Assembly: GCA_044224315.1 (NCBI GenBank)
Contig: JBGAKR010000003.1
Location: forward strand, 172,510 to 236,509
Reading direction: 5' to 3'
DNA: 64,000 nt
DNA from: Bacteroidia bacterium
Lineage (GTDB): Bacteria; Bacteroidota; Bacteroidia; NS11-12g; UBA955
A program made the position numbers and the translations under genes. Positions 745 through 62,104 of the stretch are shown piece by piece. The notes below the pieces were generated by a model. That model made no database searches. It worked only from the letters and a program-made list of their open reading frames with translations, and was not told where the DNA came from. Position 1 is the stretch's first letter. Every line of letters begins with the position of its first letter.

Positions 745-1917
745 TCAGGGATTGATAATTTTTGAAATATCCTTTTCCTCCGGACGATCTTTGATTAAAA
801 ATACCAAATATTTTTTTAGCGCATCGGCTTTTGTTTTTTCACCCGCTGCATCATAGTGCTGCCACAGTTTCAGCATAGGTACAATATAGTTGGCATTAAT
901 GCATGCAACCATATCCTGCGAACGATCGTAATAGAAGGGTTGCAGGATATAATCCAGTTTATAATTTTGTTCAAAATTACGCCTTAATAAAGCCACATTA
1001 TCCAAATCCTGGGTATTAAACTCATAAGCCAGGCCTGTTAAAAACAGGTTACCCGATACCTTCTGATAAATTTCCTGGTCGGCCGTTAGTGATACATATA
1101 CCGGATTCTTTTTAAAATTATAGGCCGCAAAAGGTATAATATCGGAATTAAATATTTCTTGTAAACTACGTTGAGAATCTGCGCTGATTCTGGGGTCGTA
1201 CATATCTTTATCCCATAAGGGTGTGTTTTTTTCTTTACAGATTTTATCGCGATAATTTTTAATACCGAATAAAGAAAAATTGATGGCAGTAACATCTGTG
1301 CGTATGCCCTGCGACTGTAAAAACCATACCGGATAGGTGTCGTTATCACCCACTGTAAAAATAACTGCATTGGGCTTTAAACCAGCCAGCATGTTATACG
1401 CATAGTACATAAATCCGGGTGAGTATTCATGGGCTTCAACCATTTGCCGGGCAATGGCATTCCGTTTTTCAATATCGCGGTCTAATTCGGCTACAATCAG
1501 CGAAAATTCAAGGTGCTCTGTTCGGTCTGGTCCCAGCATTTCAGCCTTGCGCAAATAAGGAAGCAGTTTATCATCCAGTCCGCCATTGGAATAAACCACC
1601 ACATTGTACTCATAACTTTCGGGCACCGCTTTTCCCATATTGTCTATCAACTGCTGATGCTCTTTATGGCGTTCGGCACGCGGACGCTTGTCTGTGGTAT
1701 CCAGTTTCATCAGGTTGCGATTGGCTTTGTACCAATAATACCATGCCAATGCATTTTTTGGGTCCTTTTCCGTCTCCTTTTTCCATAAATTATTTTGGGT
1801 GCGGTACCAGTCCAAACTATGGGTAACCACGGCAAAGCCATAAACAGGTTCAGGCTTTTGAGCCCTGCCAATTTGAAAATAAAGCAAAGCCAGTATGATG
1901 AGAATGTACTTTTTCAT
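745..1917 (-). CDS. secreted hypothetical protein with signal peptide; first gene of the ECF sigma operon
   Basis: ORF 745-1956. The likely start is the internal [20 protein letters not shown] signal peptide at 1917. It is 4 nt upstream of the sigma gene on the same strand. No domain recognised by eye. Confidence 0.6.
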
Positions 1918-1965: not shown

Positions 1966-2015
1966 AGGGAATAGGGAGTAGGGGGCAGAGGGTGGCAACA
2001 GCCTTTTTGACAGCC

Positions 2016-2052
2016 AGTTAGAAGTTAGGAGTTAGAAGTTAGAAGTGAAGAG
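2016..2052. repeat. short tandem repeat of ~7-8 nt units, about 4-5 copies (gttagaag/ttaggag)
   Basis: Seen directly: cagttagaagttaggagttagaagttagaagtgaagagtt. Confidence 0.7.
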
Positions 2053-2389
2053 TTGAACAGCCTTTTTTAGTTTACAGTTTGCAGTTTATAGTTGACAGTA
2101 TTAACAGCCTCCGCCACATAACATGGGCGGATGAGCCGCCAGTCTAGACAGCCCCAAAAAACATAGATTCATAGTTAACAGCCCAAGTGCACATTGACTT
2201 TTTATGCTACAAGGTGAAACCTATAGTATTCTATGTTTTCTTGGTAGTTAAAACTAATGTGTGCTATGTGGTTAAAATCAGTTAGAAGCGGAGGGACTTG
2301 CTTTCCATCGCGAGTAAAACCTCACGATTTACAGTAATAATAGCCTTTTGAACAGCGAGTTAGATGACCAGTTCCCATTCCGAACGAAT

Positions 2390-2960
2390 GCTCAAATTCA
2401 AAATTCACAATTTCTAATTGGCTGTTTCTTCGGTTGTCCCTACCCCAAATTGGTCAGTAAGGAATTAAACATCAAACAATAGCCCCGCCTCGTTCCTCTA
2501 AGGATAAGCATTCACAATTCATAATTCACAATTTCTAATTGGCTGTTTCTTCGGCTGTCCCTACCCCAAATTGGGCAGTATGAAATTAAACATCAAACAT
2601 TAGCCCCGCCTTGTTCTCGTAAGGATAAGCATTCACAATTCACAATTCATAATTCACAATTCTAATTGGCTGTTTCTTCGGCTGTCCCTACCCCAAATTG
2701 GTCAGTTAGGAATTTAGCATCAAACAATAGCCCCGCCTCGTTCCTCTAAGGATAATCATTCACAATTCACAATTCATAATTCACAATTCATAATTCACAA
2801 TTTCTAATTGGCTGTTTCTTCGGCTGTCCCTACCCCAAATTGGTCAGTAAGGAATTTAGCATCAAACATTAGCCCCGCCTCGTTCTCCTAAGGATAAGCA
2901 TTCACAATTCACAATTCATAATTCACAATTTCTAATTGGCTGTTTCTTCGGCTGTCCATT
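2390..2960. repeat. imperfect tandem repeat array: about 4.4 units of 118-152 bp, ~95% identical, with a nested AATTCAC/AATTCAT heptanucleotide microsatellite whose copy number differs between units
   Basis: The unit core CTAATTGGCTGTTTCTTCGGCTGTCCCTACCCCAAATTGGTCAGTAAGGAATTTAGCATCAAACAATAGCCCCGCCTCGTTCCTCTAAGGATAAGCATTCACAATTCACAATTCATAATT recurs at 2414, 2535, 2662, 2814 and 2932 (last copy truncated). There is no ORF of 60 aa or more on either strand across 1957-2993. Confidence 0.9.
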
Positions 2961-18737: not shown

Positions 18738-18994
18738 GTAGGGATAAAGAATTCCGAAAGTACGGTTATTGACTGGCATTTACAGAAAATATTCCGTCGA
18801 TTGACCAAATTTTGACATTCAACGTGTCTCCCTAATTACTGGTATTATTCTATTTAATAGAGAATTTTTCTGTGGATTTTAAATTAAATAAAACAGTCAA
18901 ATCGAATAGATTTTTTGGGTTTATCCACAGCATTTTATATAGCTTAATTGCGGCCCTAATTAGCTTTCAGGCCTTAAATACGATTTAAAAAATG

Positions 18995-24681: not shown

Positions 24682-24811
24682 ACTGTTTCGGTTTCAAATA
24701 TCGCACCGTATTGCCAACTTTCAACCAAACTACAATTATTCTATATCGTGTTGTATAAAAATATAGACAAAATGGTAAAATAATATATGAATGAAAATTG
24801 CCCGGAAGCCA

Positions 24812-24843
24812 AAGGCAAAAAAAAACACACCCTAAAGTGTGTT
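24812..24843 (-). terminator. rho-independent terminator (minus strand) downstream of the small basic ORF
   Basis: On the minus strand: aacacac-tttagg-gtgtgtt followed by nine T. Confidence 0.6.
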
Positions 24844-24865
24844 TTCTATATCAAATTGATAAGAT

Positions 24866-25015
24866 TTATTCTTGGTCTTCGAGGATAATACCAGACTCAC
24901 CTTTATGGGGTGAAGCAATTGTTACCACACTACGGAGGCGTTTAATAGTTTGCACGCGCCTGTTCATGCGGCTGCGGATCTTGGCTTCTTTGCGTTTCAG
25001 TCTTGTAACTCCCAT
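24866..25015 (-). CDS. unannotated small ORF, 49 aa, very basic (MGVTRLKRKEAKIRSRMNRRVQTIKRLRSVVTIASPHKGESGIILEDQE)
   Basis: ATG to TAA on the minus strand; below the 60-aa cutoff of the ORF track. A terminator lies 23 nt downstream. Sits inside an 868-bp intergenic region. No family recognised. Confidence 0.35.
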   Translation of the reverse strand: MGVTRLKRKEAKIRSRMNRRVQTIKRLRSVVTIASPHKGESGIILEDQE

Positions 25016-25261
25016 GATTCGAAAATTGAGCCGCAAAAATAGGAATTAGATTCTAAATATGCAAGTGGTAGGTTTAATAATGTAAAATGCTTGCCCGAAC
25101 CTGAAAGGGGCGGGTAAAATGTAGAATGTTAAATGGAACAGCCTCGGCCACATTTCCAATGGGCGGAGCAAGGCGCAGTCTTCCACATTTTCCGCAGGCT
25201 GAGTAAAGTGCAAAGTGCGAAGTGCACACAACAGCCAATTAAATGTAAAATGTAACATATA

Positions 25262-25420
25262 CATTTCTCACATACACTTTCTCTACCAATCCACTATTCA
25301 ACCATTCCACCAATCTAAAATTGCGCAATAACAAAACAACACAAAAACACAATACCACAACAACAGAATTACCCAATACCACAATACCACCACAACACAA
25401 TTACACAATACCACGACATT
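25262..25420 (+). repeat. low-complexity A/C-only tract on the plus strand (CA-rich, degenerate ACAATACCAC-type repeats), upstream of hmgA
   Basis: Seen directly: ~150 nt with almost no G or T on the plus strand (acaaaacaacacaaaaacacaataccacaacaacag...). Confidence 0.8.
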
Positions 25421-25549
25421 GCGCAATATATTGCTAATCAATACTTTATACCACTTGTTTTGAATATTTATGAATTACTTGGGGGTGACCCAAATCACAT
25501 TTTATACTAACACATGTTAGTTGATTTGCCGCAACTTAATTTCATAACT

Positions 25550-26734
25550 ATGCCACTCTATCGTCAAATAGGCCTTATTCCAAACAAGCGCCACGTGGTT
25601 TTTCGCCAGCCCAATGGCGAATTATACCACGAAGAGCTATTTGGTACAGAAGGGTTCTCGGGCGTTTCTTCGCTTGTTTACCATTTGTACCCGCCCACCA
25701 TGGTTAAAGAACATGGTAAACCCTTTAGCGTTCGTCCTGAAATTGCCGTGGAAGACAATCTCCAAGCCCGCAGTTATTTAGGTATGGAGGTAGAGCCTGA
25801 AGAAAATTATATCGACAGTAGAAAAGTATTGTTTGTAAACGATGATATGCACATTGGCCTGGCTTCTCCTAAAAACAGCATGGCTGATTATTTTTTCAAA
25901 AATGCCGATGCCGATGAGATGCTTTTCATTCACCGTGGCAAGGGGATTCTGAAAACCATGTATGGAACTGTAGACTTTGAGTATGGCGATTATGTGATTA
26001 TTCCACGAGGTACGGTTTATCAGTTAATTTTTGAAACCACCGACAATAAAATCCTGTTTGTAGAATCGTTTTCACCCATTGAAACACCTCCGCGTTATCG
26101 CAATCAGTATGGGCAGTTTATGGAAAATTCTCCCTTCTGCGAACGCGATTTTAAATTGCCCCATAGCATGGAAACCCATGCAGAAAAAGGCGATTTTAAA
26201 ATTTATATCAAAAAACGCGGATTGATATATCCATACGTTTACGAAACCCATCCCTTCGATGCTGTGGGTTATGATGGCTGTAGCTATCCTTATGCAATGA
26301 GCATCTTTAACTTTGAACCTATCACAGGGCGCATTCATATGCCGCCTCCCATTCACCAACATTTTCAGGGACGCAATTTTGTGATCTGCAGTTTTGTTCC
26401 CCGAATGTATGATTACCATCCGGATGCAATTCCGGCTCCGTATCATCACAGCAATATTGACAGCGACGAGCTGCTGTATTATGTAGACGGTGATTTTATG
26501 AGCCGCAATAACATACAGAAAGGGCAAATAACCCTGCACCCGGGCGGTATACCCCATGGACCACATCCAGGGGCCATAGAACGCAGCATTGGTAAAAAAG
26601 AAACCCACGAGCTTGCCGTTATGATTGATCCGTTTAATCCGGTAAAAATCACCACCGAAGCACTGAAATTAGAGGTGGCCGATTACTATAAAAGCTGGCT
26701 CACACAACCCGACAAAAACCTTCAACCGGCCTAA
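25550..26734 (+). CDS. hmgA: homogentisate 1,2-dioxygenase
   Basis: The N-terminus MPLYRQIGLIPNKRHVVFRQPNGELYHEELFGTEGFSGVSSLVYH matches the HGD family. The ORF track starts 12 codons upstream at 25514; MPLY at 25550 was taken as the likely start. Confidence 0.8.
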   Translation: MPLYRQIGLIPNKRHVVFRQPNGELYHEELFGTEGFSGVSSLVYHLYPPTMVKEHGKPFSVRPEIAVEDNLQARSYLGMEVEPEENYIDSRKVLFVNDDMHIGLASPKNSMADYFFKNADADEMLFIHRGKGILKTMYGTVDFEYGDYVIIPRGTVYQLIFETTDNKILFVESFSPIETPPRYRNQYGQFMENSPFCERDFKLPHSMETHAEKGDFKIYIKKRGLIYPYVYETHPFDAVGYDGCSYPYAMSIFNFEPITGRIHMPPPIHQHFQGRNFVICSFVPRMYDYHPDAIPAPYHHSNIDSDELLYYVDGDFMSRNNIQKGQITLHPGGIPHGPHPGAIERSIGKKETHELAVMIDPFNPVKITTEALKLEVADYYKSWLTQPDKNLQPA

Positions 26735-38276: not shown

Positions 38277-38568
38277 AATAAAGATATTTAATGTTCGGCT
38301 GCAGCTTAAGATTAGGCAAAATCCAGTCCAATCTGGAGAAACGAATTGCAGGCCCATGGGCGTTTTTCTGTATTTACCTCAAGTATTTGCGGAATTTTAT
38401 GTCATTACACCATTGCAAGTAGACTGCAGGTACAAATAAAGTAAATAGGTATTCAGTTCAGGATTGTTTAATACTTGCAACAGCCGCCTATTTACAGTGA
38501 TAAATGAGCAAATCCTATATGCAGGGTTGATGATAAATTATTGTTAAAAATAGAACTAAATTGCACCC

Positions 38569-62018: not shown

Positions 62019-62104
62019 GCCCGGGTGGCGGAATAGGTAGACGCGCAGGACTTAAAATCCTGTTGTCAGCGATGGCAGTACGGGTTCGATTCCCGTCCCG
62101 GGCA
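62019..62104 (+). tRNA. tRNA-Leu (anticodon UAA)
   Basis: 86 nt. Acceptor stem GCCCGGG/CCCGGGC, anticodon stem-loop cagga-CUUAAAA-tcctg, long variable arm and T-loop GGTTCGATTCC. CCA is not encoded. Confidence 0.85.

Follow-up and report, generated by a model that had tools for sequence, protein, structure and literature searches.

The heptamer AACAGCC is strongly over-represented in the intergenic DNA of a 64,000-nt stretch of a Bacteroidota chromosome (GenBank contig JBGAKR010000003.1, positions 172,510 to 236,509), here called the window. We consider it probable, at roughly 0.6, that an uncultured genus of Bacteroidota carries a lineage-specific family of non-coding mosaic repeats, of which this enrichment is the mark and which resembles repetitive extragenic palindromes (REPs) and bacterial interspersed mosaic elements (BIMEs) and is combined with simple-sequence repeats. 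The mosaic is confined to two intergenic regions of the window, IGR-A (1918-2993, 1,076 nt) and IGR-B (537 nt), which lie 23 kb apart. Its modules are the heptamer RACAGCC (AACAGCC or GACAGCC), often present as a doublet with 12-nt phasing, A/T-rich heptanucleotide microsatellites, a five-unit minisatellite, and a hairpin of 22-24 nt. RACAGCC, the doublet, the combination AACAGCC-AATTA-heptamers, and the hairpin recur in both loci and also in two related species. The mosaic is most likely near-neutral spacer DNA that lies distal to the real promoters and not the operator set of a regulon, and it may incidentally influence DNA topology or transcriptional read-through.

Enrichment of AACAGCC and anatomy of the mosaic

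Across the whole window we counted 21 copies of AACAGCC, compared to 8.7 ± 2.9 in dinucleotide shuffles. Using a curated gene map, we assigned 12 copies to the intergenic DNA (4,751 nt at 33.8% GC; expectation 0.28), and 8 copies remain when the tandem array is collapsed to a single unit. The 59 kb of coding DNA holds 9 copies versus ~8 expected. The enrichment is real and is restricted to intergenic DNA, and AACAGCC is the sole GC-rich sequence among the commonest intergenic heptamers in the collapsed set. A first-pass annotation of the window had reported the over-representation and suggested comparing intergenic with coding DNA; the excess stands in that comparison, run here within the 64-kb window, and all of the positions it gave were recovered on recount. 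These are the plus-strand AACAGCC sites at 1997, 2056, 2103, 2177, 25137, 25230, and 38479, the GACAGCC sites at 2009 and 2147, and one further AACAGCC on the opposite strand of each of the five tandem units, which we located on the minus strand at 2420, 2541, 2668, 2810, and 2938. The same annotation had spread the motif over three intergenic regions, of which only two hold the mosaic. The site at 38479 stands alone, without any other module of the mosaic, and is probably a chance occurrence outside the repeat family.

Within the mosaic (Table 1), essentially every module joint is marked by the one GC-rich heptamer RACAGCC, and most of the heptamer arrays are bordered by it. When all RACAGCC sites are aligned, the consensus ends at the heptamer itself; the trait that the sites share is their position at a module joint, with each RACAGCC of IGR-A and IGR-B adjoining a heptamer array, a hairpin, or a unit body. 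The doublet is a direct repeat, RACAGCC-N5-RACAGCC. On the minus strand each minisatellite unit reads GACAGCC-GAAGA-AACAGCC-AATTAGA-(AATTGTG/AATTATG)n-body, and the units vary mainly in heptamer copy number and hence in length, while the two ends of a unit are unrelated. The orientation of AACAGCC flips within IGR-A, where ~155 nt of unique DNA also separates the AACAGCC at 2177-2183 from a decayed doublet. Period-7 arrays were identified by Tandem Repeats Finder at 2016-2046, 2069-2099, 2510-2533, 2631-2662, 2758-2802, 2900-2930, and 2957-2990, and shorter 7-nt arrays were read from the sequence itself at 25108-25136, 25203-25229, and 25237-25262.

Three sub-architectures are found in both spacers. 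The first is AACAGCC followed by the hairpin and a CAGTCT tail (blocks A and B). The second is AACAGCCAATTA plus heptamers, which is common to all of the array units of IGR-A and is present in the 25203-25262 region around the AACAGCC at 25230. The third is GGCGGG plus AATGT-type heptamers plus RACAGCC, by which 25095-25136 is co-linear with the minus-strand body of the IGR-A unit (GGCGGGG and AATGT-type heptamers). IGR-B additionally carries a C/A-rich repeat that belongs to its lineage-specific insert; the perfect palindrome ATTGCGCAAT that bounds this repeat occurs at 25320-25329 and 25418-25427.

Table 1. Modules of the intergenic mosaic and the isolated heptamer, in window coordinates
Feature	Coordinates	Strand	Remark
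RACAGCC doublet AACAGCC-TTTTT-GACAGCC, leftmost mosaic joint of IGR-A	1997-2015	+	
(AGTTAGA)n microsatellite, GACAGCC at its left and AACAGCC (2056) at its right	2016-2055	+	
AACAGCC, T6, and (AGTTTAC)n microsatellite	2056-2102	+	Logan contigs from two runs stop at 2079
Block A: AACAGCC, the hairpin (2110-2131), and 15 nt of tail up to CAGTCTA, followed by GACAGCC	2103-2153	+	
Short A-rich heptamer-like spacer with AACAGCC (2177-2183) at its end	2154-2183	+	
Decayed doublet AATAGCC-TTTTG-AACAGCG-AGTTAGA	2339-2364	+	85% identity to 1997-2022
Minisatellite, ~five units of 121-142 nt	2389-2957	-	
(CATTAAA/CATTAAT)n microsatellite, from the last doublet to the Vut_1 stop codon	2957-2993	+	
G-rich GGGGCGGG, then AATGTNN heptamers abutting AACAGCC (IGR-B)	25095-25136	+	
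Block B: AACAGCC, hairpin 25144-25167, tail ending CAGTCT	25137-25182	+	
(AAGTGCR)n, AACAGCC (25230-25236), AATTA, (AATGTAA)n	25203-25262	+	
C/A-rich 8-nt and 32-nt simple repeat (25326-25414) between two ATTGCGCAAT palindromes	25320-25427	+	Without RACAGCC
Lone AACAGCC	38479-38485	+	Otherwise ordinary spacer; no heptamer array, hairpin, or doublet nearby

The shared hairpin block and the mosaic in related species

The two hairpin blocks, 2103-2148 and 25137-25182, align by gapped local alignment with 37 of 47 columns identical and a score of 38. None of 500 dinucleotide shuffles reaches this score (21.9 ± 2.4, maximum 35), and the best score of this type against any other real stretch of the window is 31, confirming the ~44-nt shared element that had been described from the sequence. 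The inverted repeat CCGCC...GGCGG attributed to both copies is intact in block A and is interrupted in block B by a single mismatch without compensation (TCGGCC/GGCGGA). We found the hairpin to consist of an outer stem of 6 bp (TCCGCC/GGCGGA), a bulged A, an inner stem of 3-4 bp, and a 3-nt loop, with the consensus TCCGCC-A-CAYY-loop-RRTG-GGCGGA. Block A reads TCCGCC-A-CAT-AAC-ATG-GGCGGA and block B reads TCGGCC-A-CATT-TCC-AATG-GGCGGA. A third copy, in which two inner-stem T-A pairs become C-G, lies on the minus strand of a contig from a related species (L012). These compensatory pairs are suggestive, and all three copies fold alike as DNA, with z scores of -3.2 (A), -1.7 (B), and -4.7 (L012).

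The hairpin is found in either orientation relative to AACAGCC and to the flanking genes. Its immediate flanks are AACAGCC/TGAG in block A, AACAGCC/GCAA in block B, and ATTCAC/CATA on the minus strand of L012; neither a GTAG nor a CGTC tag adjoins any of the three copies on either strand, and no T-tract follows the hairpin. A pair of RACAGCC sites brackets the hairpin in each block (2103/2147 in A, 25137/25230 in B). There are also "empty" doublets, in which the spacer is 5 nt long, and the L012 hairpin sits outside a doublet.

Two short Logan contigs from related species, L011 and L012, run past the Vut_1 transporter stop codon that bounds IGR-A and end in the mosaic. Sequencing runs SRR13867569 and SRR27977617 contain the related species. 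Their Vut_1 genes are 93.5% (L011) and 91.7% (L012) identical to that of the window at the nucleotide level and 98-99% identical in amino acids. The number of TAATGTT-type heptamers after the stop codon is 3 in L011, 5 in L012, and 6 in the window. The doublet RACAGCC-GAAGA-AACAGCC-AATT that follows is kept in both contigs, so that it is identical or nearly so in three species. Past the doublet the related species diverge, with a few AATTRTG heptamers and then the hairpin, compared to a different unit body in the window. An ordinary spacer of the window (24682-24840) is co-linear and ~93% identical at the same evolutionary distance while the mosaic differs, which makes the mosaic a hot spot of rearrangement. 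With ordinary spacer DNA conserved to this degree, a retained doublet does not by itself speak for selection, and we dropped it as such a sign.

Orthologous spacers in more distant relatives lack both the heptamer arrays and the AACAGCC-bearing stretch (L006, L013, and L015) and keep the promoter-proximal DNA. In the family-level relative L006, the gene after Vut_1 encodes 309 aa and the spacer, of 107 nt, has no mosaic, and the DNA just upstream of the TMEM260_2-like gene, including a palindrome at 1947-1965, is common to L006 and the window. The spacer between the small gene and the homogentisate dioxygenase (HGD) gene that bound IGR-B measures 275 nt in L013, versus 537 nt in the window, and 85 nt in L015. 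L013 conserves ~45 nt at the left and ~95 nt at the right, including the TATTTTTG box of the small gene and a CTAACA-N2-TGTTAG palindrome, and the middle ~410 nt of IGR-B is replaced there by unrelated A/T-rich DNA. Gene-proximal conservation combined with the loss of the mosaic in relatives suggests that real promoter and operator DNA hugs the genes and that the mosaic lies distal to it. The 309-aa gene of L006 (8964-9893), which has a signal-peptide-like N-terminus and sits between Vut_1 and the TMEM260_2-like gene, was considered as a source of IGR-A; we rejected a pseudogene remnant, as tblastn finds no trace of the gene in the window.

Known repeat systems and competing explanations

In the Bacteroidetes Gramella, Aequorivita, and Elizabethkingia, long spacers are occupied by several kinds of heptamer repeat side by side; their close relatives have shorter, repeat-free spacers, and contigs end inside the repeats (PMC4679880). 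Heptanucleotides are the commonest long simple-sequence repeats (LSSRs) according to Mrazek et al. 2007, as cited in PMC4679880. As in those spacers, in LSSRs, and in the short tandemly repeated repetitive (STRR) sequences of heterocystous cyanobacteria, several A/T-rich 7-nt arrays share one enlarged spacer here, relatives have shorter, repeat-free spacers in the same gene neighbourhood, copy number is unstable, assemblies break, and the host is a member of the Bacteroidota. The arrays are non-coding, run head to tail in at least three copies, vary in copy number, and are absent from the relatives with shorter spacers, which places them among LSSR/STRR repeats. The unit TAACTGA is not used here; the nearest is (AGTTAGA)n, or TCTAACT when read from the opposite strand. 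Unlike the known heptamer-repeat spacers, the arrays here are punctuated by a fixed GC-rich RACAGCC and are accompanied by a hairpin module and a 121-142-nt minisatellite, and we found no ACAGCC-type anchors beside the published heptamer arrays in the supplement of PMC4679880.

The hairpin also resembles REP and BIME elements (PMC3733652): it is an imperfect extragenic palindrome of 22-24 nt, within the 20-40 bp of a REP (two copies in the window and one in L012), it stands in lineage-specific mosaics with other short motifs in either orientation, and it is located both 3′ of a gene and between genes. In tagged REPs, one end of the palindrome is marked by unpaired GTAG or CGTC (PMC3733652). 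The hairpin here has no such tag, which rules out the tagged REP superfamilies. Three copies of it are known, and the window proteins scanned include no REP-associated tyrosine transposase (RAYT). The organisation is plainly a mosaic, with one hairpin per cluster, and its other motifs, RACAGCC and the heptamer microsatellites, are not BIME components. Miniature inverted-repeat transposable elements (MITEs) are likewise small, non-coding, intergenic modules, and the RACAGCC sites that bracket the hairpin could be read as a target-site duplication. However, the bracketing repeat also exists as the empty 5-nt-spaced doublet and so need not be a duplication, and MITEs are ruled out by the lack of terminal inverted repeats around units or blocks; a repeat search gave only I1 (2153/2230) and a palindrome at 1919-1940. 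No cognate transposase is known for these modules. Of the repeated-element family suggested by the first-pass annotation, recurrence across two loci and two related species thus stands, and the MITE and tagged-REP identities do not.

Replication slippage would expand the 7-nt arrays, and the minisatellite would expand when direct repeats that contain RACAGCC recombine unequally or mispair by slippage. The hairpin block common to IGR-A and IGR-B may have spread by some transposition or ectopic-conversion process, as proposed for REPs and BIMEs. A mosaic repeat family would be another case of Bacteroidota inflating particular intergenic spacers with unstable simple-sequence mosaics. It also has practical implications: short-read contigs break exactly at the mosaic, and a strongly over-represented heptamer need not be an operator.

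In the Logan assemblies of runs SRR28480385 and SRR28480381, contig ends at 2079 and 2928 flank the repeat-rich part of IGR-A, and a junction is also found at ~25094-25108. The break at 2928 is due to 31-mers that are repeated inside the array. The break at 2079 falls at the same position in both runs, and together with the one near 25100 it suggests that further copies exist elsewhere or that the population is heterogeneous in heptamer number. Several observations weigh against a dispersed family. The block in IGR-B was assembled as unique sequence in its Logan contig, and therefore no copies sharing 31-mers are present in that sample. The evidence comes from two loci in 64 kb and two short contigs of relatives, so that the term "dispersed family" rests on few copies. 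Among the window proteins scanned there is no transposase, RAYT, or integrase. The covariance analysis of the hairpin block that had been proposed yields the two compensatory pairs of L012 and is not decisive, since 92 of 500 shuffles do equally well with the three sequences available. Finally, a function for the doublet could also account for its being kept perfectly in three species.

We also searched more widely for the modules. Scanning the GTDB representative genomes, which do not include the source genome, with the pattern ACAGCC-N5-RACAGCC-ARTTAGA returned only a chance match in Lysinibacillus and a 12-mer satellite in Melioribacteraceae. JGI metagenomes scanned for the AACAGCC-plus-hairpin block gave two chance matches in high-GC coding DNA, and pattern scans of viral contigs (IMG/VR) gave none. 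Rfam 15 reports only a tRNA (62019-62104) at gathering score, with relaxed scans of both spacers giving sub-threshold noise. The spacers show no coding potential: their ORFs reach at most 44 aa in one tally and 72 aa in another and are inconsistent from unit to unit, none of which has a length divisible by 3. Tandem genes for small peptides resembling ribosomally synthesised and post-translationally modified peptides were rejected, as 27-aa TTG-initiated ORFs occur in only two units and are truncated by stop codons in the others. A CRISPR-like array was rejected, as the units are alike over their whole length and have no variable spacers. An intrinsic terminator was rejected as well, with one weak consensus match (minus strand, 2140-2126) that is not conserved in block B. 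The Melioribacteraceae satellite (metagenome-assembled genome contig JBAYVI010000004.1; L003, 1-520) consists of ~45 tandem 12-mers, GGCTG[CT][CGA]TAACT on the plus strand, which on the other strand read AGTTA plus NRCAGCC (GRCAGCC-AGTTA), with the same 7+5 phasing as the RACAGCC doublets. This likeness may be a coincidence, the search pattern having been built around the motif of the window.

An alternative is that the RACAGCC doublets are transcription-factor sites controlling the extracytoplasmic function (ECF) sigma and homogentisate operons, in which expression might also be tuned by slippage of the heptamer arrays as spacers. The half-sites of OmpR/PhoB-type or LytTR-type response regulators have a layout similar to that of direct 7-bp repeats phased at 12 bp, and two-component regulators are encoded within the window. 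The doublet is phased and near-identical across three species, heptamer copy number differs between those species, and both mosaics lie upstream of an operon (TMEM260_2-like/ECF sigma for IGR-A and HGD/HPPD, the homogentisate and 4-hydroxyphenylpyruvate dioxygenases, for IGR-B). However, the usual phasing for such regulators is 10-11 bp; the Pho box, which also pairs 7-bp direct repeats across a short spacer, has an 11-bp phase. Five of the six perfect doublets are 480-1,040 nt from the next start codon, in the minisatellite 3′ of Vut_1 where most AACAGCC copies sit, and their orientation flips inside IGR-A. RACAGCC is missing at the orthologous promoters of relatives, where proximal palindromes (1947-1965 and 25507-25520) are conserved, and conservation of the doublet is not diagnostic when ordinary spacers are ~93% conserved too. 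The first-pass annotation had offered a regulon motif as one of two readings and had placed all three regions upstream of genes for secreted or lipoprotein products. This placement fails for two of the three, with a signal-peptide-like N-terminus only in the TMEM260_2-like protein and none in homogentisate dioxygenase or in the DUF4442 thioesterase encoded downstream of the 38479 site. The downstream genes (a signal-peptide protein with an ECF sigma factor, two dioxygenases, and a thioesterase) are functionally unrelated. With no common theme downstream, no fixed orientation or distance, and no AACAGCC stretch in the orthologous spacers of relatives, the regulon motif is not supported, and we regard control of the two operons through RACAGCC as unlikely.

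The regular presence of one fixed heptamer at module joints is the only feature that goes beyond published descriptions. It could reflect a sequence-specific seeding or insertion process, and two loci are too few to claim one. In its strongest form, which is similarly improbable, RACAGCC would be the target of such a process (for example, an HUH-type nicking enzyme or a replication-stalling protein), accepting hairpin insertions with a 7-bp duplication and seeding heptamer arrays; alternatively, the arrays would serve as a phase-variation rheostat. The former would constitute an "anchor-guided" modular repeat system of a kind not described before, in which case the Melioribacteraceae (GRCAGCC-AGTTA)n satellite could be a hint that it is more widespread among the FCB group. 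In the rheostat version, hypermutable arrays would alter how RACAGCC sites are phased relative to the promoters of the two operons (ECF-sigma and homogentisate).

A role at the RNA level appears slightly less likely still. Here the hairpin and array units would be transcribed in 3′ untranslated regions, 5′ leaders, or small RNAs and would limit read-through or make transcripts more stable, effects reported for some REP and BIME elements. Vut_1 is directly followed on its own strand by the array, the three hairpin copies share an identical fold with two compensatory pairs, and the minus strand of block A out-folds its shuffles (z = -2.6). However, folding energy is not in excess in the array units or in block B (z from -1.0 to +0.4), the minus-strand signal of block A is not conserved in block B, differences between units fail to keep predicted pairs, and there is no Rfam match. 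Additionally, the hairpin lacks a following T-tract, occurs in both orientations, and is missing along with the other elements from family-level relatives.

Finally, we doubt that there is no dispersed family at all and that an arbitrary heptamer was multiplied locally in two independent simple-sequence expansions whose A/B likeness is coincidental: local duplication does explain most copies (the five array units and the 1997/2339 pair), the A/B seed by BLAST alone has E = 0.14 within the window, and no more copies were found in the public genome, metagenome, and viral collections scanned, but the gapped A/B alignment exceeds 500 of 500 shuffles and all other real stretches of the window, three separate sub-architectures are common to both spacers, the same hairpin occurs at a different position in L012, and two AACAGCC in the ~410-nt insert of IGR-B have a chance of ~3e-4 at 0.28 expected per 4.7 kb.

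Genomic setting and gene-proximal sequences

The window has a GC content of ~41% and encodes core genes, including ValRS, MreBCD/PBP2/RodA, and an alternative-complex-III operon. Its proteins include type IX secretion system (T9SS) sorting domains, and their homologues are named as Bacteroidetes, Bacteroidia, or Sphingobacteriales; the window is therefore chromosomal DNA of an uncultured Bacteroidota bacterium. Its exact proteins are recorded only in one 510-kb NCBI contig and in the Logan assemblies of the two runs. IGR-A is flanked by the Vut_1 transporter gene and the TMEM260_2-like gene (745-1917, minus strand), whose product has the signal-peptide-like N-terminus, followed by the ECF sigma gene, all on the minus strand. 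IGR-B lies between a 49-aa gene (minus strand) and the HGD gene (plus strand). No transposase, integrase, or RAYT (IS200/IS605-like Y1 transposase) was found among the window proteins scanned with Pfam.

A perfect DnaA-box consensus, TTATCCACA, is present at 18921-18929 in the spacer upstream of valS, with TGTGGAT nearby at 18871-18877; ~0.5 such 9-mers are expected by chance per window.

Gene-proximal palindromes are candidate operators at both loci. The palindrome GTTTGAAC-AAA-GTTCAAAC at 1947-1965, flanked by TTTG on one side and by a TAttacTTTG-like box on the other, precedes the TMEM260_2-like/ECF-sigma operon by ~35 nt. L006 conserves part of this palindrome, which, judging from the sequence, is likely the real operator of this operon. 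The palindrome CTAACA-CA-TGTTAG at 25507-25520, conserved in L013 as CTAACAGGTGTTAG, is a candidate operator of the homogentisate/4-hydroxyphenylpyruvate dioxygenase operon and lies ~30 nt upstream of the true HGD start. The HGD ORF opens at the ATG at 25514 and its conserved start (MPLYR...) is at 25550; homologues cover just 95-97% of the longer form, and 25455-25549 is a conserved non-coding leader in L013. An HGD start taken as the first ATG of the open frame thus falls in the conserved leader, which is relevant to annotation.

The 49-aa gene (24866-25015, minus strand) encodes a very basic protein (MGVTRLKRKEAKIRSRMNRRVQTIKRL...) that has no exact entry in the gene index and appears to be unannotated. 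It is conserved in L013, has TATTTTTG as its -7 box, and is followed by a hairpin and T9 terminator at ~24815-24845.

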